From positions 1 to 20,477 of the IMG/VR virus record IMGVR_UViG_2703718852_000002: a stretch of DNA of 20,477 nucleotides. One strand, 5' to 3'. The stretch comes from a virus. Lineage: Duplodnaviria; Heunggongvirae; Uroviricota; Caudoviricetes. The notes beneath the pieces were generated by a model. It was given only the letters and a program-made list of their open reading frames with translations, was not told where the DNA came from and did not search any database. Made by a program: the position numbers and the translations under genes. Below, in pieces: positions 2,398-15,734 of this stretch (positions are counted from its first letter, which is position 1; every line of letters starts with the position of its first letter).

Positions 2398-2907
2398 ATG
2401 TTTGATTACCAAGTTTCCAAACATCCACATTTTGATGAAGCCTGTCGTGCATTTGCACTGCGCCACAATCTGGTGCAACTGGCAGAACGTGCAGGCATGA
2501 ATGTGCAGATTCTGCGGAACAAGCTGAACCCAGCTCAGCCTCATTTATTAACCGCACCAGAAATCTGGCTGCTTACCGATCTGACTGAAGATTCAACGCT
2601 GGTAGATGGTTTTCTGGCACAGATTCATTGTCTGCCATGTGTACCGATTAATGAGGTGGCAAAAGAGAAACTGCCACATTACGTCATGAGTGCAACCGCA
2701 GAGATCGGGCGTGTTGCTGCAGGTGCGGTGTCTGGCGATGTAAAAACCTGTGCCGGTCGTCGTGATGCTATCAGCAGCATTAACTCTGTAACACGACTGA
2801 TGGCGCTGGCGGCTGTTTCATTGCAGGCCCGTTTACAGGCTAATCCTGCGATGGCGAGTGCAGTTGATACCGTGACTGGCCTCGGTGCTTCATTTGGTTT
2901 GCTGTGA
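2398..2907 (+). CDS. cII: CII-like lysogeny-establishment activator (169 aa from the ATG)
   Basis: Position directly after apl and length of 169 aa match phage 186 CII. ATG at 2398 is preceded by a GAGG RBS; the ORF-track start at 2392 is TTG. Confidence 0.7.
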
Positions 2908-2914
2908 GGTGCTT

Positions 2915-3115
2915 ATGCTGACGAAAGAACCATCATTTGCATCGCTGCTGGTTAAACAAAGCCCGGCAATGCATTACGGTCACGGCTGGATCATGGGGGA
3001 GGATGGTAAACGCTGGCATCCGTGCCGTTCACAAGATGAATTGCTGGCAGAACTATCTACGAAAAAACGGGGGAACAAATGGCTATTGAAGGCACTGCGG
3101 CGACTGTTCCATTAA
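2915..3115 (+). CDS. Small protein at the 186 fil position (possible Fil-like cell-division inhibitor)
   Basis: ATG at 2915 preceded by TGAGGTG RBS that overlaps the cII stop. Position matches 186 fil. Sequence-level assignment is from memory and uncertain. Confidence 0.4.
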   Translation: MLTKEPSFASLLVKQSPAMHYGHGWIMGEDGKRWHPCRSQDELLAELSTKKRGNKWLLKALRRLFH

Positions 3116-3420
3116 GCCCCGGTGAACGCCTGAATGGACTTAATCACATTGCGGAGTTAAGGGCGAAAGTTTTTGGCCTGAATATTGAGTCAGAGCTTGA
3201 GCGGTTTATTAAAGATATGCGTGATTCACGGGATATTAATAGCGAACAAAATAAACGGGCACTGGCTGCCATATTCTTTATGGCAAAAATTCCAGCTGAA
3301 CGTCATAGCATCAGCATTAATGAGCTGACCACTGACGAAAAGCGGGAGTTGATTAAAGCAATGAATCATTTTCGTGCAGTGGTGAGCTTATTTCCCAGAC
3401 GGCTAACCATGCCGAATTAA
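3079..3420 (+). CDS. Hypothetical early-operon protein (113 aa)
   Basis: ATG at 3079 with G-rich RBS. Lies in the early rightward operon between cII and gene A. Function not recognisable from sequence. Confidence 0.5.
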   Translation: MAIEGTAATVPLSPGERLNGLNHIAELRAKVFGLNIESELERFIKDMRDSRDINSEQNKRALAAIFFMAKIPAERHSISINELTTDEKRELIKAMNHFRAVVSLFPRRLTMPN

Positions 3421-4802: not shown

Positions 4803-7213
4803 GTCATGCCGATATGAACAACTGCTGCGGCTTTAACGAAGCTGCCGCATCGTTCTCATGGAACAGCTCGAAAAAGGCCATTAACCCTTATCTGGACCCG
4901 GTGGAAGTTGCGCCGGTTTCTACGCTTTCAAACCTGATCACTCTGTACGCTGCCGATAACGAGCAGGAACAGCTGCGCCGTGAGGCGCTGAGTGATCAGG
5001 TCTGGGAGCGTTATTTCTTTAATGAATCCCGTGATCCTGTCCAGCGCGAAATGGAACAGGATAAGCTCATTAGTCGGGCAAAGCTGGCGCATGAGCAGCA
5101 GCGTTTTAATCCGGATATGGTCATTCTGGCGGACGTCAACGCCCAGCCTTCCCATATCAGCAAGCCGCTGATGCAACGTATTGAATACTTCAGCAGCCTG
5201 GGCAGGCCAAAGGCTTATTCCCGCTATTTACGTGAGACGATTAAGCCATGTCTGGAACGACTGGAGCATGTACGCGACAGTCAGCTATCTGCATCTTTTC
5301 GCTTTATGGCAAGCCATGAAGGGCTGGACGGCCTGCTGATCCTGCCTGAAATGAGTCAGTTTCAGGTGAAACGCCTGTCCACCCTGGTAGCTGCGCATAT
5401 GAGTATGTGCCTTGATGCCGCTTGTGGCGATTTGTATGCCACCGATGACGTTAAGCCAGAAGAAATCCGCAATACATGGGAAAGGGTGGCAGCGGAAACC
5501 CTGCGTCTGGATGTCATCCCGCCTGCGTTTGAGCAACTCCGTCGGAAAAGAAACCGCCGTAAACCCGTGCCCTATGAACTCATTCCGGGTTCGCTGGCGC
5601 GTATGTTGTGCGCCGACTGGTGGTATCGGAAATTATGGAAGATGCGTTGCGAATGGCGGGAAGAGCAGTTGCGTGCTGTCTGCCTTGTCAGCAAAAAAGC
5701 ATCTCCCTATGTCAGCTATGAAGCCGTGTTGCATAAACGTGAGCAGCGCCGTAAGTCGCTGGAGTTTTTCCGTTCTCATGAACTGGTGAACGAAGACGGC
5801 GACACGCTGGACATGGAGGATGTGGTAAACGCCAGCAGCAGCAACCCTGCGCATCGCCGCAATGAGATGATGGCCTGTGTTAAAGGTCTGGAGCTTATCG
5901 CGGAAATGCGCGGTGACTGCGCCGTTTTCTACACCATCACCTGTCCGTCACGTTTCCATTCCACGCTAAATAACGGCAGGCCCAACCCGACCTGGACAAA
6001 TGCGACGGTAAGACAAAGCAGCGATTATCTGGTCGGTATGTTTGCTGCATTTCGTAAGGCGATGCACAAAGCCGGGTTGCGCTGGTATGGCGTGCGGGTG
6101 GCTGAGCCGCATCACGACGGCACAGTTCACTGGCACCTGTTGTGTTTCATGCGCAAAAAAGACCGCCGCGCCATTACAGCATTGTTGCGTAAGTTTGCTA
6201 TCCGTGAAGACCGCGAGGAGCTGGGCAATAACACGGGGCCGCGCTTTAAGTCTGAGCTGATTAACCCGCGCAAAGGAACGCCGACAAGCTACATAGCGAA
6301 ATACATCAGTAAGAACATTGACGGGCGTGGTCTGGCTGGCGAGATCAGCAAGGAAACGGGTAAATCTCTGCGTGATAACGCTGAATACGTGAATGCCTGG
6401 GCGTCTTTGCATCGTGTTCAGCAATTCCGCTTCTTTGGCATTCCGGGGCGTCAGGCTTACCGTGAACTGCGATTGCTGGCTGGTCAGGCGGCAAGGCAAA
6501 AGGGGGACAAAAAAGCAGGTGCGCCGGTACTGGATAACCCGCGCCTTGATGCCATCCTGGCTGCTGCTGATGCTGGTTGTTTTGCCACCTACATCATGAA
6601 GCAGGGCGGCGTACTGGTTCCCCGTAAATATCACCTCATCAGAACCGCTTATGAAATCAACGAAGAGCCGACCGCCTATGGCGATCACGGCATTCGTATT
6701 TATGGCATCTGGTCACCCATTGCAGAGGGCAAGATCTGCACTCATGCAGTGAAGTGGAAAATGGTTCGTAAAGCCGTTGACGTTCAGGAGGCGGCAGCCG
6801 ACCAGGGCGCTTGCGCCCCTTGGACTCGTGGCAATAACTGTCCCCTTGCTGAAAATTTGAACCAACAGGAGAAAGATAAATCAGCTGATGGGGACCCCAG
6901 AACGGACATTACCAGCATGGATGACAAGGAGTTGCACGATTACCTGCACAGTATGAGCAAAAAAGAGCGCCGGGAACTGGCAGCAAGGTTACGCCTGGTG
7001 AAACCGAAACGGCGTAAAGACTACAAACAGCGAATTACAGACCATCAGCGACTGCAGCTCGTGTATGAGCTGAAGTCCAGAGGATTTGATGGCAGCGAGA
7101 AAGAGGTCGATTTACTCCTTCGCGGAGGCAGTATTCCGTCAGGAGCAGGCCTGCGTATCTTCTATCGGAACCAGCGTTTGCAGGAAGATGATCAGTGGCG
7201 GAACCTGTATTAA
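4799..7213 (+). CDS. Replication initiation protein, P2 gpA-like rolling-circle endonuclease (804 aa)
   Basis: HUH-type motif ([15 protein letters not shown]) and paired-tyrosine motif (YIAKYISK) typical of RCR initiators. Size and position match P2/186 gene A. ATG overlaps the dam stop (ATGA at 4799-4802). Confidence 0.9.
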
Positions 7214-7565: not shown

Positions 7566-7799
7566 ATGCGCATTGAAATAATGATCGATAAAGAGCAGAA
7601 GATTAGCCAGTCTACCCTGGACGCCCTTGAATCCGAGCTTTACCGCAATCTGCGCCCCCTGTATCCCAAAACGGTAATTCGCATTCGCAAAGGTAGCTCT
7701 AACGGTGTGGAACTAACCGGACTGCAACTGGACGAAGAAAGAAAACAAGTGATGAAAATTATGCAGAAGGTGTGGGAAGACGACAGCTGGCTGCATTAA
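7566..7799 (+). CDS. DinI-family protein (77 aa), as in the C-terminal part of 186 Tum
   Basis: MRIEIMIDKEQ... aligns by eye with E. coli DinI (MRIEVTIAK...; conserved W-E/D-D..W near the C-terminus). AGGTGA RBS upstream. Sits under the LexA-box promoter. Confidence 0.8.
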   Translation: MRIEIMIDKEQKISQSTLDALESELYRNLRPLYPKTVIRIRKGSSNGVELTGLQLDEERKQVMKIMQKVWEDDSWLH

Positions 7800-7933
7800 G
7801 AAACGTTGCTGGCGTCTGAACTTGCTTCTGGCGTCAGCAAGGTTGAACAACGAGCCCTTGCGAGGCGTTAGCTCTGTAGTGCATGTCTATGCCGCATGAG
7901 ATCGCATGATCGTTTGAGGATCGTTTTTGCTAA

Positions 7934-7958
7934 GGCCCGCCAGAACTGGCGGGCTTTT
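7934..7958 (+). terminator. Rho-independent terminator closing the early/SOS region
   Basis: GC-rich stem ggcccgccag / ctggcgggc with a short loop, followed by TTTT at 7955-7958. Confidence 0.6.
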
Positions 7959-8196
7959 GCGTAGATCATGCAGGTGCATGAAAACCACTACATAAAGCGG
8001 GCAGGCGTGGCGGGGATACGAGCGCGCGCTGATAGGGTAATCGTCAAAACAGGCATCAGCTAGGTTGAGTTGTAGCGGTGCTTAAGTTTGCTCGTTGTTT
8101 GATAGAGCTTAATGTATGTAATTGCCTACAGCTGTGGTTATCTATTAACATGTAAGGATAAGGTCACTTGCTCGCTGCCATTAGAAGAGGAACTGG

Positions 8197-8667
8197 ATGT
8201 CTATCGAGGAAAAATTTTTTAGTGATATCGATTTAAAAGATCCGTTTTTTAACAGCCTAAGAGCTGATTATGAAGGATTTGATGTTTGGTTTCTCTCAAA
8301 AGGTAAAAATAAGGCGTTTGTATCACGTAATGAATTAGGTGAAATCGATGGTTTTCTCTATTTGAAAATAGAAGATGAAGAGTTGAGTGATATGACTCCA
8401 ACGTTTCCAAAGATGAAGCGAGTAAAGCTTGGCACATTTAAAATCGATGCTCATGGAACCAAACTTGGAGAGCGTTTTATTAGAATTATGTTTCAATTTG
8501 CTATGAGAAACAAACTAAAAGAAGTATATGTTACTATATTTGATAAGCATTCAGGATTAATTCGCTTATTAACTAAATATGGTTTTGTTTTAAAGGCGAG
8601 GAAAAATCTTTCTACGATTAATGGGCAAGAAGGTGTATACTTTAAAAACTTGGTATGGAAGGAGTAA
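8197..8667 (+). CDS. Cargo protein 1 (156 aa), unknown function; weak GNAT-like resemblance in the C-terminal half
   Basis: ATG at 8197 with AGAAGAGG RBS. AT-rich codon usage. Segment KLGERFIRIMFQFAMRNKLKEVYVTIFDKHSGLIRLLTKYGFVL is reminiscent of an acetyltransferase core but does not fit the canonical motif cleanly. Confidence 0.6.
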   Translation: MSIEEKFFSDIDLKDPFFNSLRADYEGFDVWFLSKGKNKAFVSRNELGEIDGFLYLKIEDEELSDMTPTFPKMKRVKLGTFKIDAHGTKLGERFIRIMFQFAMRNKLKEVYVTIFDKHSGLIRLLTKYGFVLKARKNLSTINGQEGVYFKNLVWKE

Positions 8668-8670
8668 AAA

Positions 8671-9252
8671 ATGAGCTATGCTAATTATCCCTTAGTCAAA
8701 TTGCAGGGGAGAAATTATTTATTAAGTATTTATCCTGCATGGCATACACGTCTTTTCCCTGAGTCAAAACTCCACAATGAGAGTGCTGGTATCATCGCTG
8801 ATATATCACATACCAACAGTATTGAAAAAGTATACTTAACAAAAATGCATGGGGTAGCCAGCCTAAAGCCTGGAGATAATTTGCTTATTTATCGTACTTC
8901 AGATGGACAAGGTCCAGCTCGGTTTAGATCTGTTGCAACTTCAGTGTGTGTGGTTCAGGAAATTAAAGATATTCACGATTTCTTAACTTATGAGGAATTT
9001 AAGAATTACTGTGAACCTTATAGCGTTTTTGATGAAGATGAGTTACAGCTTCTATATATGAAAAAAAATTATCCGATAATTATACGGTTTACTTATAATT
9101 TCCCTTTGGAAAAAAGAGTTATTCGTGATGAAATCATGAATATTACAGGTTATACCAATAGTGATTATTGGGGTTTTTTACCACTAACTGATTCAGCATT
9201 TAAGCAGATTGTCTTACAGGGAGGTGTTGATGAAAGTTTTATTATCGATTAA
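8671..9252 (+). CDS. Cargo protein 2 (193 aa), unknown function
   Basis: ATG at 8671, 3 nt after the stop of cargo 1, with GGAAGGAG RBS. Overlaps the start of cargo 3. No recognisable motif. Confidence 0.6.
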   Translation: MSYANYPLVKLQGRNYLLSIYPAWHTRLFPESKLHNESAGIIADISHTNSIEKVYLTKMHGVASLKPGDNLLIYRTSDGQGPARFRSVATSVCVVQEIKDIHDFLTYEEFKNYCEPYSVFDEDELQLLYMKKNYPIIIRFTYNFPLEKRVIRDEIMNITGYTNSDYWGFLPLTDSAFKQIVLQGGVDESFIID

Positions 9253-9601
9253 GCCAGAGTATGCAGAGAGTATACTTTCTGGTAAAAAAAAATATGAGTT
9301 TCGGAAAAATATTTTTAGAAATAAAAATGTTGATACGATAGTTATTTACGCAACGATGCCGGTTGGCAAAGTAATAGGTGAATTTAAAGTAGGAGATATT
9401 CTTGCTCTATCCCCTTCAGAATTGTGGGATAAAACGAAAGCTCATGCAGGAATTACACATTCTTTTTTTAAAGATTATTTCCACCAAAGAGAAAAGGCTT
9501 TTGCTATTTCCATCAAAAGCCCTAAAAGATATAAATTCCCTGTCGACTTAAATGAGTTGATTCCCGGCGGCGTCGCCCCACAGTCTTATCGTTATTTATA
9601 A
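9230..9601 (+). CDS. Cargo protein 3: ASCH-domain (PUA-like) protein (123 aa)
   Basis: ATG at 9230 preceded by GGAGGTG RBS. N-terminal MKVLLSIKPEYAESILSGKKKYEFRK carries the ASCH signature GxKxxExR seen in E. coli YqfB (GRKTITIR). Confidence 0.65.
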   Translation: MKVLLSIKPEYAESILSGKKKYEFRKNIFRNKNVDTIVIYATMPVGKVIGEFKVGDILALSPSELWDKTKAHAGITHSFFKDYFHQREKAFAISIKSPKRYKFPVDLNELIPGGVAPQSYRYL

Positions 9602-10141
9602 TGTTGTCTGGGCATGTTTCTTAACCATGCCCAGTTTTTCTAGGGCAATAGATAAATCGTTTGTTGTTGGGGATTCTAAGATAATTAATGGTACATTGAT
9701 TTTATTTGTAACATATTTTGCGTTTTCTCTTTCAGCTTCCATCAGCTTATTTAAATCATAAGTAATATCACTCCCATCTCGTTTCATTATTCGTTCTCTA
9801 ATTGTATCGGGAGACTCCTCAACTAAAATTACTCCATCTAGCCCCATTTCCTCAAATACTTCTTGCTTGAGAACTTCAATATCTCCATTTTTATTTATTA
9901 AGGTAAAATGACCATCCAATAAAATATTGGATACCTTTAACTTTAATGCATTAAGTGCCGTAAGTAATATTGATTGGTTTTTATCAGGTGTGGCCGTTAA
10001 CTTACTGTTATCAAATTTAATATTAGAATTATTTTTTATAAGTTCGCTTGCGCTTACATGAGTTACCCCGAAATCATCTTTTGCAAATGAACACAAGTAA
10101 CCTTTGCCTACACCATGAACACCTGCTATGAAAATTAACAT
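9596..10141 (-). CDS. Cargo protein 4: small P-loop NTPase / nucleotide-kinase-like protein (181 aa)
   Basis: Walker A motif at the N-terminus (IFIAGVHGVGKGYL) and Walker B-like hhhhDG (ILLDGHF). ATG at 10139-10141 with GGAGG RBS. Convergent with cargo 3; the 3' ends overlap by 6 nt. Confidence 0.7.
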   Translation of the reverse strand: MLIFIAGVHGVGKGYLCSFAKDDFGVTHVSASELIKNNSNIKFDNSKLTATPDKNQSILLTALNALKLKVSNILLDGHFTLINKNGDIEVLKQEVFEEMGLDGVILVEESPDTIRERIMKRDGSDITYDLNKLMEAERENAKYVTNKINVPLIILESPTTNDLSIALEKLGMVKKHAQTTL

Positions 10142-10206
10142 AGTATTACCTCCGTTTATTTATTTATGTTAGAATGTTATAGCCTTAGCATAGTAGAGGA
10201 TAGAGC

Positions 10207-10584
10207 ATGAAGTTTCAAGCTATATCGATTTTGACTCCAGCGGTAGAAAATATTATAAATGGTTCTAAATCTATCGAAATACGGTCGTGGTATCCTGAAA
10301 CGATACCATTAAAAAACGTCATTCTTGTTCAGAATGATAAATATCTTAAAAATCAAAGCGATATAGATCATGGGGTGGCTATGGCTATTGTCGATTTTGT
10401 TTCAGTTAGAAATTGGTCATATGAGGATTACTTAAAACAAAACCAAGAAACAACTCTTAATAAGCCTTGGTCTCCAGGTTATTATGTGTGGGAAATTAAA
10501 AATGTTAGAATTTTAAAAAAATCTATTCCTTGTGTGGCGAGGAAAGGTATTTATACAATAGATTTAAATATGGATTATATATAA
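10207..10584 (+). CDS. Cargo protein 5: second ASCH-domain (PUA-like) protein (125 aa)
   Basis: ATG at 10207 with GAGGA RBS. Motif NGSKSIEIRSW fits the ASCH GxKxxExR signature. Divergent from cargo 4. Confidence 0.65.
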   Translation: MKFQAISILTPAVENIINGSKSIEIRSWYPETIPLKNVILVQNDKYLKNQSDIDHGVAMAIVDFVSVRNWSYEDYLKQNQETTLNKPWSPGYYVWEIKNVRILKKSIPCVARKGIYTIDLNMDYI

Positions 10585-10595
10585 GGTATTGTGAG

Positions 10596-11387
10596 ATGTG
10601 TGGTGCCATTCTTCGAAATATTAAGCGTTATGCCATTATTTATTCACTGTTGTTTTTGGCTTTTATTTTAATGCTGATAGTGTTTGTTAGCTATGTTTGT
10701 AAATTTGGAGTGTATTCATGGAGTGATTCCGTAGAGAAATGGGGACAGTTTGGCGATTATATTGGTGGTGTACTGAATCCTGCTCTGGCCTTTATCTCTA
10801 TCATGCTTGTTTGTTTCACACTATATTCTACATCTAGGCAGTCATCTATTCAGTCATTCGAGTCTGTGTTATTTGAGTTACTAAGATTTCATAAAGATAA
10901 CTTATCAGAAATTAAAACAACGTATTCAGATGGAAAAGTGTATGTAGGACGGGAGGCTCTTTCATTATACATTACCGAAGTGAAGTTTAACCTACTTAAT
11001 ATTGTGGATGATTCACTTCCTTTGGATGAAAGGTTAGAGCTTTCAGTTAATATGGTTTATCTGGAAGGTGACAATTTTGCGAATGTGGGACATTATTTCA
11101 GGAATATTTACCATATTTTTAAACATATCAATGACTCTAACTATTTGACTGAGAAAGAAAAAACCAAGTATGCGAAATTAGTTAGAGCACAAATATCTTC
11201 TATAGAATCTGGCGCGATGCTATTAAATGGTTTTTCATCGGTAGGAAAGCCTGCCAAGAAATTTATTGAAAAATATTCTCTCCTTCAGGGGTTTAGTTTA
11301 AGTAAGGAATTCAAGCAGCAATTACATGATTTAGGTGCCTTAAAATTATACGATGACGTTGCTTATGAGGATAAAAAAGGGCATTAA
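10596..11387 (+). CDS. Cargo protein 6: membrane protein with two N-terminal TM helices and a cytoplasmic C-terminal domain (263 aa); candidate effector
   Basis: ATG at 10596, 12 nt after the cargo 5 stop. Hydrophobic segments IIYSLLFLAFILMLIVFVSYV and LNPALAFISIMLVCFTLYS. The ORF-track start at 10530 is TTG inside cargo 5 and is rejected. Confidence 0.6.
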   Translation: MCGAILRNIKRYAIIYSLLFLAFILMLIVFVSYVCKFGVYSWSDSVEKWGQFGDYIGGVLNPALAFISIMLVCFTLYSTSRQSSIQSFESVLFELLRFHKDNLSEIKTTYSDGKVYVGREALSLYITEVKFNLLNIVDDSLPLDERLELSVNMVYLEGDNFANVGHYFRNIYHIFKHINDSNYLTEKEKTKYAKLVRAQISSIESGAMLLNGFSSVGKPAKKFIEKYSLLQGFSLSKEFKQQLHDLGALKLYDDVAYEDKKGH

Positions 11388-12230
11388 ATGCCCTTATCTT
11401 GGTCAAGGATGTAGTCATTAAATGACACAATATTTTGATTTATCCAGGTGTTTAGCTCAACTAGTCTTTTCTGCAAAGGAACCAACTCATTTCTGACAAA
11501 AACCTTCGCGGCTTTTTCCACATCCCCAAACCCTCCAACATTATTAGGCATAATCCCCATCATTTGCGGCGGCACGCGGTGCGCAGCCATCATGTCATCA
11601 CGGCTCACGTTCTTGATATTCAGAAACTCATCCTTCGCCGCAACTTCTGACAATGGGATAATCTGAAGCCCGTCCTTTTTGCCGTTAGGCGAGTACATAA
11701 ACAGGTTGCGGAAGTTGCCCGGACCTTTGGCGCTTTTCATCGCATTGCGGAGGTTGTTCACATCTTCCTGGTTCTGCGCGGCATCGGTCATGTACATGAT
11801 GAAGCCTGCATGACTGCCGTTAATGTAATACTTCCGGCGGAACAGCGTGGCGGACTCGTTGAGCAGGGCTGACGGAATGGCAGAAAGATAACCTGGCAGG
11901 CCGTAGATCTCCTGGTTGATGTCCGGTTCCATCAGATGAAAAATGCTGCCTTTCGTGAACTGATACGGCTGGGTTGTCATACCGTATTGCACAAACCAGT
12001 AGGTATCCAGGTCTAACCCGCGTCGGGTATATTTTGCCAGAGCAGGCTCAAGGGCGATAACTTCACCGAAGCGGTTCGTGCGTTTCTCCAGGTAGGCGTT
12101 ACCAAATACCAGATAGTCCTGCACAAAACGTGAAAAAGCCTGCTGGCTGAGCAGCGGGTGAGGGATGTAGGTACTGGTCAGAATGTTGCATTTTACTGCA
12201 ATCGGTGACCGGAAGCAGAGCCGGTAATGG
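11384..12230 (-). pseudogene. Q: Portal protein gene remnant (P2 gpQ-like), 5' part deleted
   Basis: The C-terminal ~270 aa of the 317-aa ORF read as a P2-family portal (...AAHRVPPQMMGIMPNNVGGFG...FNDYILDQDKGI). The N-terminal ~30 aa of the ORF are antisense to the J remnant and not portal-like. Upstream boundary is approximate. Confidence 0.6.
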
Positions 12231-12439
12231 CAGCGGCAAAAGCCAGTCTGCAGAAGTACATTGCCAGCCAGACGAGGCTTGGTCGGGATATTCGCCGTAG
12301 CGCCATCTTTGCTGCTCTGCATGTTGAGGGTGTTCAACGTGTGGAACTGGCTTCTCCGCTGGCGGATGTGGTCCTGAACAAAACACAGGCGGCATCATGT
12401 ACGCAGTGGAGCGTAACCAACGGAGGAACGGATGAATAG
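12227..12439 (+). pseudogene. J: Baseplate protein J gene remnant (3' end only)
   Basis: A 70-aa ORF ending 5 nt into gene I, where the gpJ C-terminus would sit. No full-length J upstream; abuts the portal remnant. Confidence 0.45.
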
Positions 12440-13037
12440 TCTGCTGCCACCGGGTTCAACTTCACTGGAGCGCCGACTGGCGCAAACCTGTAGCGGGATT
12501 TCTGATTTGCAGGTGCCGCTGCGTGACTTGTGGAATCCGGCTACCTGTCCGGTCAGCTTCCTGCCTTATCTCGCCTGGGCGTTCTCTGTGGATCGCTGGG
12601 ACGAGGGCTGGACAGAAAGCGTCAAACGCCAGGTAGTGAAGGATGCTTTTTATATTCATCAGCATAAAGGAACCACCAGTGCCGTGCGGCGGGTGGTGGA
12701 ACCGTTCGGATTCCTGATCCGCATTATTGAGTGGTGGCAGACCGGAGAAACACCGGGCACGTTTCGCCTGGATATCGGCGTGCAGGACCAGGGCATCACT
12801 GAAGATACCTATCTGGAACTTGAGCGACTGATAAGCGATGCCAAACCATGTAGCCGCCACATGATCGGCATGTCCATCAATCTGCAGACCAGCGGCCCGC
12901 ATTGGGTGGGAGCCGCCAGCTATCTTGGCGAAGAAATCACGATCTATCCGTATATCAACGAAACGATTATTTCCGGTGGCACCGCGCATGAAGGCGGGGC
13001 GGTCCATGTTATTGACACAATGAGAGTGAATCCATGA
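12432..13037 (+). CDS. I: Baseplate/tail protein gpI (201 aa)
   Basis: LRDLWNPATCPVSFLPYLAWAFSVDRWDEGW...GTFRLDIGV matches P2 gpI as recalled. GGAGGA RBS. Stop overlaps the H start. Confidence 0.8.
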   Translation: MNSLLPPGSTSLERRLAQTCSGISDLQVPLRDLWNPATCPVSFLPYLAWAFSVDRWDEGWTESVKRQVVKDAFYIHQHKGTTSAVRRVVEPFGFLIRIIEWWQTGETPGTFRLDIGVQDQGITEDTYLELERLISDAKPCSRHMIGMSINLQTSGPHWVGAASYLGEEITIYPYINETIISGGTAHEGGAVHVIDTMRVNP

Positions 13038-14480
13038 GCACAAAATTTTATACCCTGCTGACGGATATTGGCGCGGCGAAACTTGCCAGCGCCGCCGCGC
13101 TCGGTGTGCCGCTAAAAATTACCCATATGGCGGTGGGCGATGGCGGTGGAGTATTGCCAACGCCGGACGCAAAGCAGACGGCACTGGTAAATGAGAAACG
13201 CCGGGCTGCGCTGAATATGCTTTATATCGACCCGCAGAACAGCAGCCAGATTATTGCCGAACAGGTGATCCCTGAAAACGAGGGCGGTTGGTGGATACGT
13301 GAAGTGGGCTTGTTTGATGAGTCCGGGGCATTGATTGCCGTGGGCAACTGCCCGGAAAGCTATAAGCCGCAACTGGCTGAAGGTAGCGGGCGCACTCAGA
13401 CCGTGCGCATGGTGCTGATTACCAGCAGCACGGACAATATCACCCTGAAAATCGACCCTGCTGTAGTGCTGGCAACCCGCAAGTATGTGGATGACAAGGC
13501 ACTGGAGCTGAAGGTGTACGCGGATGATCAGATGGCAAAACATCTTGCCGCACCGGACCCGCATTCACAGTACGCGCCAAAAGCCAGCCCGACATTTACC
13601 GGAACCCCCAAAGCGCCAACGCCAGCGGCGGGGAATAATACCACGCAGGTTGCGACCACTGCGTTTGTACAGGCGGCACTGACGGCCCTTATTAATGGTG
13701 CGCCAGCCACGCTGGACACGCTGAAAGAAATAGCCGCAGCCATTAACAATGATCCGAATTTCAGTACCACCATTAACAATGCGCTGGCACTAAAAGCACC
13801 GTTGTCGAGTCCGGCACTCACCGGAACGCCAACAGCCCCCACGGCGGCGCAGTCGGTCAACAATACACAGATTGCCACTACGGCTTTTGTGAAATCGGCG
13901 ATTGCAGGAATGGTGGGTTCTGCACCTGCTGCACTGGATACACTGAACGAACTGGCGGCGGCACTGGGGAATGATCCGAACTTTGCCACGACAATGCTTA
14001 ATGCGCTGGCAGGTAAACAACCGCTGGACAATACGCTTACCAATTTGAGTGGAAAGGATGTGGCTGGTCTTCTCGCATACCTTCAATTGGGAGAAGCGGC
14101 AAAACGGGATGTCGGAACCGGTAATAATCAACTCCCGGACATGTCCGCATTTGGTATGTCGCGAAACGGACAAACTGCCTGGGATATTCTCCCAAATGGT
14201 ATGATTCGACAGGCTGGCACTGTGACACTGACACCAGTTGGTAACTTCAACGAAATTGTTCTTGGTGGAGTGACGTACTACACCCATTACTACAGGGTTA
14301 ATTTCCCCAGACAATTCCCAAATGCACAAATAGCAACGCTGGCAACACTAGCGAGCTCAGAGTTTTCGAAACAGACAACAATGGCCGGAAAATCACTGGC
14401 AACGCATCGCGATACTGATTCTGGCACTGACGTATCAAGAACGCGATTCACTGTGGCGTACGGCAGCAGTAACTCGAACC
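13034..14480 (+). pseudogene. H: Tail fiber gene H, N-terminal ~480 codons, 3' part deleted and fused to the T remnant
   Basis: MSTKFYTLLTDIGAAKLASAAALG...MAVGDGGG...ESYKPQLAEGSGR...LDTLNELAAALGNDPNFATTMLNALAGKQP is P2 gpH-like. After about 14470 the frame reads low-complexity Cys/Arg-rich text, and no G/tail-fiber-assembly gene follows. Confidence 0.7.
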
Positions 14481-14489
14481 AGCAGCGCG

Positions 14490-15734
14490 TTGTCCTGGCT
14501 GGCTGGCGCACCACTGGCACTGCTGCGACGCGGGCTTGCTTCATCGGGCAACGCCGCAGGTTTACTTACTGCGCCGTTGTCGTCTTTGCGCCGCACGGCA
14601 TCACTGACGGGAAATGTCCTGAAAACTGTAGCAGGTGCGCCGGTTGCACTTTTGCGGTCTGGATTATCCGGTTTACGTGCTGTTGCTGTGATGTTTATGA
14701 ATCCTCTGGCGGTACTGCGCGGTGGACTGGCCGCCGCAGGCACGGTGCTGCGAGTACTGGCATCTGGTCCACTGGCGATGCTGCGCGTTGCCCTGTATGC
14801 CATATCTGGTCTGTTAGGTGCTCTGCTCAGTCCGATAGGTCTTGTGGTTACTGCACTGGCGGGCGTGGCGCTGGTTGTCTGGAAATACTGGCAACCCATC
14901 ACCGCATTTCTCGGTGGCGTGGTGGAAGGATTCAAAGCGGCGGCAGGTCCCATCAGTGCAGCGTTCGAACCGCTTAAGCCCGTGTTCCAGTGGATTGGCG
15001 ACAAAGTGCAGGCGCTGTGGGGCTGGTTTACTGATCTGCTGACGCCCGTTAAGTCGACCTCTGCCGAACTGCAGAGCGCAGCGGCAATGGGGCGGCGATT
15101 CGGGGAGGCACTGGCGGAAGGGCTGAATATGGTCATGCATCCGCTGGACTCCCTGAAATCCGGCGTTTCCTGGTTGCTGGAGAAGCTCGGCATTGTCAGT
15201 AAAGAGGCCGCAAAGGCAAAACTGCCGGAAAGCGTGACGCGTCAGCAACCTGCGACGGTGAATGCAGACGGTAAAGTGATGATGCCATCGGGTGGTTTTC
15301 CATCATGGGGATATGGCTTTGCGGGGATGTATGACAGCGGCGGGTATATCCCGCGCGGGCAGTTTGGCATCGTCGGTGAAAACGGGCCGGAAATTGTTAA
15401 CGGCCCGGCAAATGTGACCAGCCGGAGAAATACAGCTGCACTGGCTGCCGTTGTTGCCGGAATGATGGGCGTTGCTGCCGCGCCAGCAGAGCTTCCACCG
15501 TTGCACCCTTTGGCACTTCCCGCGAAAGGTGGAGAAGCAATTGTGAGTCGCGCAGCCACTGTGCCGCTCGTTCAACGGATTGAGGCACCGACGCAGATCA
15601 TCATTCAGACGCAGCCAGGACAAAGTGCGCAGGATATTGCGCGGGAGGTGGCACGCCAGCTTGATGAACGTGAACGCAGGCTGAAGGCAAAAGCCAGGAG
15701 TAACTACAGCGATCAGGGGGGATACGACGCATGA
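14490..15734 (+). pseudogene. T: Tail tape-measure gene T, C-terminal ~414 codons only
   Basis: Ala/Gly/Leu-rich tape-measure-like sequence ending directly before gpU (ATGA overlap at 15731-15734). The ORF-track start at 14490 is TTG; this frame is open back to a stop at 14349-14351. The N-terminal half of T and the genes for sheath, tube, E and G are absent. Confidence 0.65.

Follow-up and report, generated by a model that had tools for sequence, protein, structure and literature searches.

The DNA analyzed here, a 20,477-nt stretch of IMG/VR record IMGVR_UViG_2703718852_000002 (hereafter the window, with coordinates counted from its first letter), carries within a decayed P2-like prophage an AT-rich island of six open reading frames (ORF1–ORF6; Table 1), and this island is, almost certainly, a GNAT-EVE/ASCH system of the PDC-M11/GevTA type. 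The locus is a variant of an already catalogued candidate system, distinguished by a split putative writer, a second putative eraser and a membrane protein, and is not an undescribed locus. As to its function, the best explanation, to which we give a probability of about 0.55, is a lysogen-expressed, toxin–antitoxin-type abortive-infection cassette that would operate through reversible acetylation of nucleic acid.

A preliminary description, made from the letters of the window, had listed the same six ORFs, all of which are present and intact, with coordinates in agreement with the RefSeq annotation of a 99.9% identical locus. Its two ASCH proteins, its convergent P-loop kinase-like protein and its membrane protein with two transmembrane (TM) helices are confirmed, the last now gaining a putAbiC domain, whereas the 156- and 193-residue proteins that it had left as unknown are identifiable as a GNAT acetyltransferase and a protein with a predicted EVE/PUA-like fold. 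Its statement that none of the six belongs to a described system does not hold: ORF1–ORF3 match the A and B components of PDC-M11, a GNAT-EVE/ASCH/AAA_17 operon has been published, a related phage pair is annotated as GevT/GevA, ORF6 has a putAbiC domain, and the arrangement is listed in Table S5 of Rousset 2022.

Table 1 Features of the island and its borders in the window
Feature	Position	Strand	Evidence
Terminator-like hairpin, end of early operon after DinI-like gene	7929-7960	+	Inverted repeat, arms 7929-7943 and 7946-7960
Left junction (~8040) and untranslated leader/promoter region of ORF1-3	8040-8196	.	Similarity end in 1,282 records
ORF1, 156 aa, GNAT acetyltransferase domain, N-terminal half of split GNAT-EVE	8197-8667	+	PADLOC PDC-M11A
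ORF2, 193 aa, predicted EVE/PUA-like domain, C-terminal half of split GNAT-EVE	8671-9252	+	PADLOC PDC-M11A
ORF3, 123 aa, ASCH protein (PDC-M11B/GevA family)	9230-9601	+	Pfam ASCH, E 5e-9
ORF4, 181 aa, AAA_17-family P-loop protein, nucleoside monophosphate (NMP)-kinase-like	9596-10141	-	Pfam AAA_17, E 3e-18
ORF5, 125 aa, second ASCH protein, EOLA1-like	10207-10584	+	Pfam ASCH, E 1.7e-3, under curated threshold
ORF6, 263 aa, two N-terminal TM helices and C-terminal putAbiC domain	10596-11387	+	Pfam putAbiC (PF16872), E 1e-18
Palindromic hairpin, right island edge	11377-11395	.	Minus-strand terminator-like site: 8-bp stem, then T-run
Portal gene Q remnant, right backbone flank	11384-12337	-	Pfam Phage_portal, E 2e-16

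Identity of the six proteins

The comparison with PADLOC that the preliminary description had proposed assigns ORF1 and ORF2 to the two halves of PDC-M11A and ORF3 to PDC-M11B. The PDC-M11A profile is spanned here by two ORFs rather than one, ORF1 covering positions 11–160 of its 357 (E = 1e-58) and ORF2 positions 166–357 (E = 6e-69), and the PDC-M11B profile is matched over its full length (E = 1.7e-49) by ORF3, which adjoins the PDC-M11A genes and is co-directional with them. ORF1, which evolves under a dN/dS of 0.06, matches the PHROGs family phrog_13728 'acetyltransferase' (E = 4e-52), and its family profile retrieves GNAT structures only from the PDB, at E-values from 5e-5 to 0.08 (Naa50, 5e-5; PaiA, 7e-5). 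Window ORF1 alone gives no Pfam match; Pfam PF00583 is matched by 4 of 13 members of the family, with a long-form homologue above the Pfam cut-off. For ORF2, an AlphaFold2 (AF2) model with a predicted local distance difference test score (pLDDT) of 86 assigns the EVE/PUA-like fold, that of modified-base readers.

ORF1 and ORF2 lie in one frame and, as read directly at the junction, are separated by a TAA stop and a single AAA codon; an AAGGAG Shine–Dalgarno sequence is embedded within the last codons of ORF1, 7 nt ahead of the ORF2 ATG, and the two genes are, judging from this layout, translationally coupled. Separate 193-residue homologues of ORF2, down to 59% identity, occur in Serratia, Enterobacter, Rahnella, Pantoea, Cronobacter, Klebsiella, Pectobacterium, Gilliamella and Aeromonas, and fused forms of 290–370 residues, named "N-acetyltransferase", are found in Legionella, Lysobacter and Paenibacillus. 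The split did not arise through a recent stop mutation in a once fused gene, because the divided form is conserved to 59% identity, has the embedded Shine–Dalgarno sequence and shows gap lengths that vary. There is also a long-form variant (loci L049, L051, L057 and L058), in which the PDC-M11A gene (gene A) encodes 512–547 residues, with approximately 150 extra N-terminal residues giving no Pfam match, the PDC-M11B gene (gene B) encodes 275–281 residues, with an XRE-type HTH_3 domain ahead of ASCH, and the kinase gene is adjacent.

The start of ORF3 overlaps the end of ORF2 by 23 nt. ORF3 aligns over its full length with ZmASCH (PDB 5GUQ), at E = 6e-12 for the sequence by itself and 7e-21 for the profile of its family, and ZmASCH itself matches PDC-M11B (E = 1.5e-27); therefore, the family of ORF3 includes a solved and biochemically studied protein. 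Residues G18, K20, E23, R25 and Y40 and a PQS motif are invariant in this family, and ORF3 retains the equivalents of ZmASCH Y47, K53 and S128. ORF5 is barely alignable with the ORF3 family (40 residues aligned, hhalign probability 19.5%) and finds no match in the PDB by sequence; an ASCH fold is given by its AF2 model (pLDDT 84.5, built with database homologues), and G19, K21, E24 and R26 are invariant in its family. What the two families have in common is the octapeptide GxKxxExR, invariant in both, which holds the catalytic Lys and Glu of other ASCH enzymes. According to a 2026 preprint, 19 ASCH proteins, including ZmASCH, EOLA1 and TRIP4-ASCH, deacetylate N4-acetylcytidine (ac4C) of tRNA in vitro, a reaction for which the octapeptide Lys and Glu are essential; EOLA1 deacetylates free ac4C as well.

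ASCH-clan proteins also recur in P2-like phages outside the cassette. In E. coli KS-NP019 (L169), a DUF3850 gene is located at 2847–3149 between TraR and Dam in the early operon, and DUF3850/ASCH is also matched by the third gene in the old-tin construct from P2 (Rousset 2022, supplementary files 4 and 6). Arrangements of the type "DUF3850/ASCH + hypothetical..." are frequent in the hotspot census of Rousset 2022, where ASCH is mentioned 143 times.

ORF4 is, by sequence comparison, a P-loop protein resembling an NMP kinase and closest to the adenylate and UMP/CMP kinases: it matches adenylate kinase 1 (E = 4e-6) and UMP/CMP kinase (E = 7e-5) in the PDB, and the NCBIfam adenylate-kinase and UMP-CMP-kinase models at 8e-8 to 6e-7, far under their cut-offs. 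Its P-loop reads GVHGVGKG, and GxHxVGK, LLDGHF, R117 and R121 are invariant in the family, the last three falling, as judged from sequence, where the adenylate kinase motifs would be expected. A weak match to PADLOC VakA was also noted (E = 0.007 for the window protein and 3e-7 for a putAbiC–kinase fusion described below). ORF3 and ORF4 converge at 9596–9601 with stop codons overlapping by 6 nt and no terminator between them, an arrangement from which it would follow that their transcription must either collide or give antisense RNA; in other relatives, the kinase gene is co-directional.

ORF6, which RefSeq names "putative phage abortive infection protein", begins 12 nt past ORF5. Its putAbiC match scores 68.1 bits against a cut-off of 22, the predicted TM segments comprise residues 9–42 and 55–78, and GQFGDYIGG and GHYFRxxYH are conserved motifs; matches to PADLOC AbiC (E = 9.4e-6) and AbiP (E = 2.8e-4) are both weak and partial.

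Co-inheritance of the cassette genes

A tblastn comparison of the six proteins with 20 viral contigs that ORF2 had retrieved showed their full order and orientation to persist while identities descend to about 69–73% for ORF1–ORF3, 44% for ORF4, 50% for ORF5 and 54% for ORF6; at least 17 viral contigs keep the six-gene order. Klebsiella oxytoca and a lambdoid prophage of Aeromonas caviae likewise carry the five-gene core. Relative to a locus of 82–94% identity, dN/dS is 0.03–0.24 across all six genes, indicating purifying selection, and at least 1,000 contigs from E. coli, Klebsiella and Salmonella encode the exact window proteins.

The composition of the cassette was surveyed in a census centred on gene A, consisting of the best 80 of 194 matches and hence biased toward relatives of the window. 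Fused A with B and nothing further accounted for 40 loci, and fused A and B with the kinase for 7 more or, with the kinase and DUF3850 (an ASCH-clan domain), for 4. Among loci with split A, 17 carried B, kinase, second ASCH gene (ASCH2, ORF5 in the window) and putAbiC, 8 the same set up to ASCH2, 2 B and putAbiC, and 1 B only; in the remaining locus, A lay at a contig end. B thus stands beside A in 79 of the 80 loci, the kinase is present in 36, and a second ASCH-like gene occurs only where the kinase is present. A separate scan of viral contigs seeded with the kinase gave 60 loci, in 59 of which A and B lie beside it, in several orders and orientations; at the sole exception, the contig ends 460 bp past the kinase. 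These 59 loci rule out the kinase as an independent module. B is obligatory, and the kinase is a dedicated but optional add-on.

The membrane protein is attached to the A/B pair less uniformly. A putAbiC gene joins the pair in four architectures, one of them without kinase and ASCH2; at L086/L087 (L086, 4173–5519), a single 448-residue protein unites two TM helices, the putAbiC domain and an intact kinase; and in the A. caviae lambdoid prophage, putAbiC is replaced by a two-TM protein of the SLATT_5 family starting 8 nt after ORF5. The kinase–putAbiC fusion, together with the replacement of putAbiC by SLATT_5, points to a joint output arm made up of the kinase and the membrane protein. We read ORF1–ORF5 as one system, and ORF6 is probably an effector recruited to it, although it could be an independent single-gene abortive-infection (Abi) protein.

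In the A. caviae prophage (L005–L007, 3500–10700), the surroundings of the cassette and SLATT_5 gene include HNH_2 as well as either Peptidase_M78 with DUF4411 or a Trypsin_2 protein; these conflict-type genes suggest an accessory region resembling a defence island.

The island and its prophage

In 500-nt sliding windows, the G+C content is 0.31–0.35 from about 8250 to 11500, compared with 0.43–0.55 in the left and 0.52–0.56 in the right backbone; taken over the island as a whole, about 8040–11395, the same low values contrast with 0.50–0.56 in the flanks, so that the AT-rich break reported in the preliminary description is evident also by calculation. The island is flanked on the left by replication gene A, a small ORF and a DinI-like gene and on the right by the portal gene; it occupies the gpA–gpQ interval, whose content differs among related prophages, and is in this sense cargo of the P2 old/tin hotspot. 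This interval is the cos-proximal hotspot of Rousset 2022, where old and tin reside in P2, where 1,650 arrangements were counted among 18,150 occurrences, and where validated defence systems also reside. Other E. coli P2-like prophages hold other cargo at the same site (L168 and L169), one with two hypothetical genes and one with a PIN-domain protein, so the proposed comparison of the hotspot across P2-like prophages does reveal cargo swapping. In Salmonella phage SopEPhi (AY319521.1, 3802–7091), the same hotspot contains a fused GNAT-EVE gene (orf12) and an ASCH gene (orf13), followed by genes for a phosphoribosyltransferase (orf14) and a DprA/SLOG-like protein (orf15); the orf14–orf15 pair is similar to the ShosTA-like system for which Rousset 2022 provided validation, and two systems adjoin there. 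The earlier view of horizontally acquired cargo at the P2 defence hotspot is supported, and that of a candidate anti-phage locus is plausible.

The island is real, but the interval of 7960–11390 first proposed for it requires correction at its left edge. With window 7800–11500 as the query, similarity in 1,282 E. coli records stops after 238–248 nt, at about 8037–8047 of the window, and the left junction is therefore placed at about 8040 and not at 7960. The terminator that had been given as 7934–7958 is real and slightly longer: its 15-nt arms, 2 nt apart and 87% complementary, are followed by TTTTG, and it sits in the conserved phage backbone immediately to the left of the variable region. 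A consensus terminator scan did not flag this hairpin because its T-run has only four T. No strong sigma-70 match was found in the leader, and the promoter scan gave 7 sigma-70-like sites, fewer than the 13.8 in shuffled sequence; therefore, no promoter is assigned. At the right edge, the second hairpin is located where ORF6 and the portal gene converge, between their ends. An Rfam scan of 7700–11600 at E ≤ 1 gave no match, and thus no sign of an RNA antitoxin or riboswitch, and the direct and inverted repeats within the island are, the two terminator hairpins excepted, short and chance-like.

An intact prophage (L001) matches the window at 99.4% identity up to 12208, inside the portal gene, beyond which the match jumps to tail gene I (12432–13037); the window has an internal prophage deletion between 12208 and 12432, with tail genes I, H, U and D still present. 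The deletion junction at 12208 as such is absent from 5,426 complete E. coli genomes, in which the best match covers 77% of the query. Further to the right, a 414-residue ORF with a TTG start and no Pfam match (14490–15734) overlaps the 3′ part of the tail-fibre gene (13034–14977) in another frame, and is probably either spurious or a remnant of rearranged tail-fibre/assembly genes. The 99.9% identical locus lies in E. coli MLI104K1, within an intact P2-like prophage next to rcdA/ybjJ, and RefSeq annotates the same six genes there. The retention of the island in a decayed prophage had been put forward as a sign of host benefit; the prophage is indeed decayed, but the retention is weak evidence, the same island being found in intact prophages.

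Proposed function and comparison with known systems

An acetyltransferase and a modified-base reader encoded beside one or two acyl-amidohydrolases suggest a writer/eraser pair. In the predicted mechanism, whose toxicity, acetylation target, eraser role, trigger and anti-phage phenotype we infer, the cassette would be expressed from the lysogen and would bring about toxin–antitoxin-type abortive infection or superinfection exclusion. A complex of ORF1 and ORF2 would be the toxic writer, acetylating a nucleic-acid target chosen by the EVE domain; this may most plausibly be a tRNA/RNA cytidine or an aminoacyl-tRNA, or alternatively DNA bases. Aminoacyl-tRNA is the target of known GNAT toxins, and DNA bases were proposed in Iyer et al. 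2013, both as reported in the account of these operons by Bell, Wolf and Koonin (2020). ORF3 and ORF5 would hold the product of the writer in check by enzymatic reversal through the Lys/Glu octapeptide, until infection tips the balance between writer and eraser and translation or replication halts. The kinase and the membrane protein would be accessory, contributing perhaps a nucleotide-handling step and a membrane effector. A part of the cassette in phage exclusion is slightly more likely than not; that it works by reversible acetylation is a tentative proposal, possible rather than probable.

Several points weigh against this explanation. The acetyl-CoA loop of ORF1 is a variant, HGTKLG, as against the R/QxxGxG/A of GNAT proteins. 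ZmASCH was first reported as a ribonuclease for single-stranded RNA and caused no change of ac4C levels in vivo, so the ASCH chemistry in this cassette is uncertain. No experimental study of PDC-M11, GNAT-EVE or putAbiC was found in the literature searched, and the GevT/GevA label is a database annotation, the study behind which was not found. The locus has at least three transcription units. Half of the A-centred loci (40 of 80) carry A and B only, and the kinase, ASCH2 and putAbiC are for that reason not required by the core. Eight split cassettes of five genes are without ORF6 and end at ORF5 against the portal gene, and about 50 of 58 more distant putAbiC relatives in viral contigs stand alone, with none of ORF1–ORF5 nearby; because of these two observations, ORF6 may be a separate single-gene system.

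The last three counts would equally be expected if two independent systems shared the hotspot, namely a GNAT-EVE/ASCH pair, with or without the kinase and ASCH2, and a single-gene putAbiC Abi protein, an arrangement close to the two or three independent modules of the preliminary description. The strand switches and separate starts within the locus agree with such an arrangement, and the GevTA-like and phosphoribosyltransferase/DprA-like pairs of SopEPhi demonstrate that the hotspot can hold unrelated systems side by side. Nevertheless, putAbiC joins A/B in four architectures, including the one lacking kinase and ASCH2, and is fused to the kinase at L086/L087; ORF6 follows ORF5 at a distance of 12 nt and diverges in step with ORF1–ORF5; a different two-TM family, SLATT_5, takes its place 8 nt after ORF5 in Aeromonas; and loci that have the kinase subfamily but not A/B are essentially absent. 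On balance, we consider two systems unlikely. The independent modules are mostly not borne out, given the block co-inheritance across genera, the occurrence of the kinase almost only beside A/B and the putAbiC–kinase fusion, with the independence of ORF6 as the remaining point.

It is improbable that the cassette serves the phage instead, as an addiction module stabilizing the prophage or as a counter-defence or takeover device in which GNAT-EVE modifies host tRNA or nucleic acid to blunt restriction or favor the phage. Toxin–antitoxin pairs can be addiction modules, several types of temperate phage (P2-like, lambdoid and Gram-positive-like) carry the cassette, and Bell et al. 2020, in their treatment of these operons, suggested that prophage GNAT-EVE might protect phages from host restriction–modification via host toxicity. 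This account fits poorly with the location at lysogen-expressed exclusion loci (the old/tin hotspot, or downstream of cI), the association with putAbiC and SLATT membrane proteins of the abortive-infection type, and the maintenance of intact genes under purifying selection in a prophage unable to make particles. A metabolic moron without a conflict role, such as a nucleoside/nucleotide-salvage or RNA-modification housekeeping set, is scarcely credible, since, although free ac4C is a salvage substrate of the ASCH proteins YqfB and EOLA1 and ORF4 resembles UMP/CMP and adenylate kinases, the genes are limited to prophages and viral contigs, occupy a hotspot with swapping cargo and include an EVE reader domain, a toxin–antitoxin annotation and membrane effector partners, and the host already encodes TmcA, YqfB and Cmk.

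Returning to the abortive-infection cassette, one could go further and speculate on a single immune pathway, in which the split GNAT-EVE protein, as the writer, places its mark on cytosine or a different base, either of tRNA/RNA or of phage DNA that is modified, the two GKER-type ASCH proteins erase the mark and thereby protect the lysogen, and the kinase and putAbiC (interchangeable with SLATT) convert it into abortive infection at the membrane. We think such a complete pathway rather unlikely, but, if true, it would be the first defence system with an acetyl writer/eraser pair on nucleic acid and would, for the first time, give prophage ASCH proteins a biological role. Temperate phages of enterobacteria very commonly carry GNAT-EVE/ASCH cassettes, and the 2026 result on ac4C removal turns a guilt-by-association prediction into a concrete writer/eraser hypothesis; the six-gene variant, with its dedicated kinase, second ASCH protein and swappable membrane protein, could show how the pair is wired to an effector. 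Should it be only a toxin–antitoxin pair beside an unrelated Abi gene, it would be one more entry in the catalogue of the P2 hotspot.

The cassette is worth comparing with the systems that it resembles in part or in whole. With the ASCH ac4C deacetylases of the GKER group (ZmASCH, EOLA1, TRIP4-ASCH and TthASCH), ORF3 and ORF5 have in common the ASCH fold and the octapeptide, deacetylation by the two proteins being putative. ORF6, with a putAbiC domain scoring well above threshold and two N-terminal TM helices, may be set beside lactococcal AbiC/AbiP, which it matches only weakly and in part, and the single-gene Abi proteins of Pfam putAbiC; most of its relatives are stand-alone prophage genes, whereas ORF6 belongs to a cassette of several genes and has some relatives in which it is joined to the kinase. 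The toxin of DarTG places a chemical mark on nucleic acid that its antitoxin removes by enzymatic reversal, and the pair defends against phage. The logic proposed here would be like that of DarTG and of the GNAT-type toxin–antitoxin systems TacAT/AtaRT, namely modification of nucleic acid or aminoacyl-tRNA, a likeness of working and not of membership: the cassette has no sequence relationship to DarT/DarG, and the antitoxins of the GNAT systems are ribbon–helix–helix or helix–turn–helix binders, not ASCH enzymes.

A closer counterpart is found in Escherichia phage PhiR47_2 (GenBank PV340567.1), which encodes a fused 357-residue "GevT toxin" and a 125-residue "GevA antitoxin", the halves of GevT being 41% and 49% identical to ORF1 and ORF2 and GevA 54% identical to ORF3. 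The two loci share the 23-nt gene overlap, a temperate coliphage as carrier and an accessory position expressed in the lysogen; in PhiR47_2, however, GevT is unsplit, the kinase, second ASCH gene and membrane gene are lacking, and the pair is positioned downstream of cI in a lambdoid phage and not at the P2 hotspot. GevT/GevA, at 5404–6832 of PV340567.1, lie directly downstream of cI on the same strand, which is the position of rexAB in lambda, and the phage also carries the sitABCD manganese transporter as cargo near its right end.

The operon type was described computationally by Bell et al. 2020, citing Iyer et al. 2013: in their account, an ASCH gene is almost always part of the (PIN)-GNAT-EVE operons and an AAA_17 gene frequently so, prophages of beta- and gamma-proteobacteria commonly carry the version that lacks PIN, and a role in toxin–antitoxin or virus–host conflict was predicted, no module having been characterized at that time. 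The window locus matches this operon in its GNAT domain, its separate ASCH protein and its frequent AAA_17 partner, the "AAA+ ATPase" of that description resembling an NMP kinase in the window data. It differs in that EVE, fused there to the C-terminus of GNAT, is here encoded separately, and in the second ASCH protein and the two-TM putAbiC (or SLATT_5) protein, neither of which is mentioned in their account of the operon. The exact window arrangement, with the same WP accessions as the RefSeq locus, is listed in Table S5 of Rousset 2022, whose searchable supplements give no sign that it was cloned. PDC-M11 itself is a candidate of PADLOC, mentioned in the literature searched only once, in a list of predicted systems, without validation. 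As in PDC-M11, the A and B genes of the window are adjacent and co-directional; in the window, gene A is split, and the kinase, the second ASCH protein and putAbiC are added outside the PADLOC definition.

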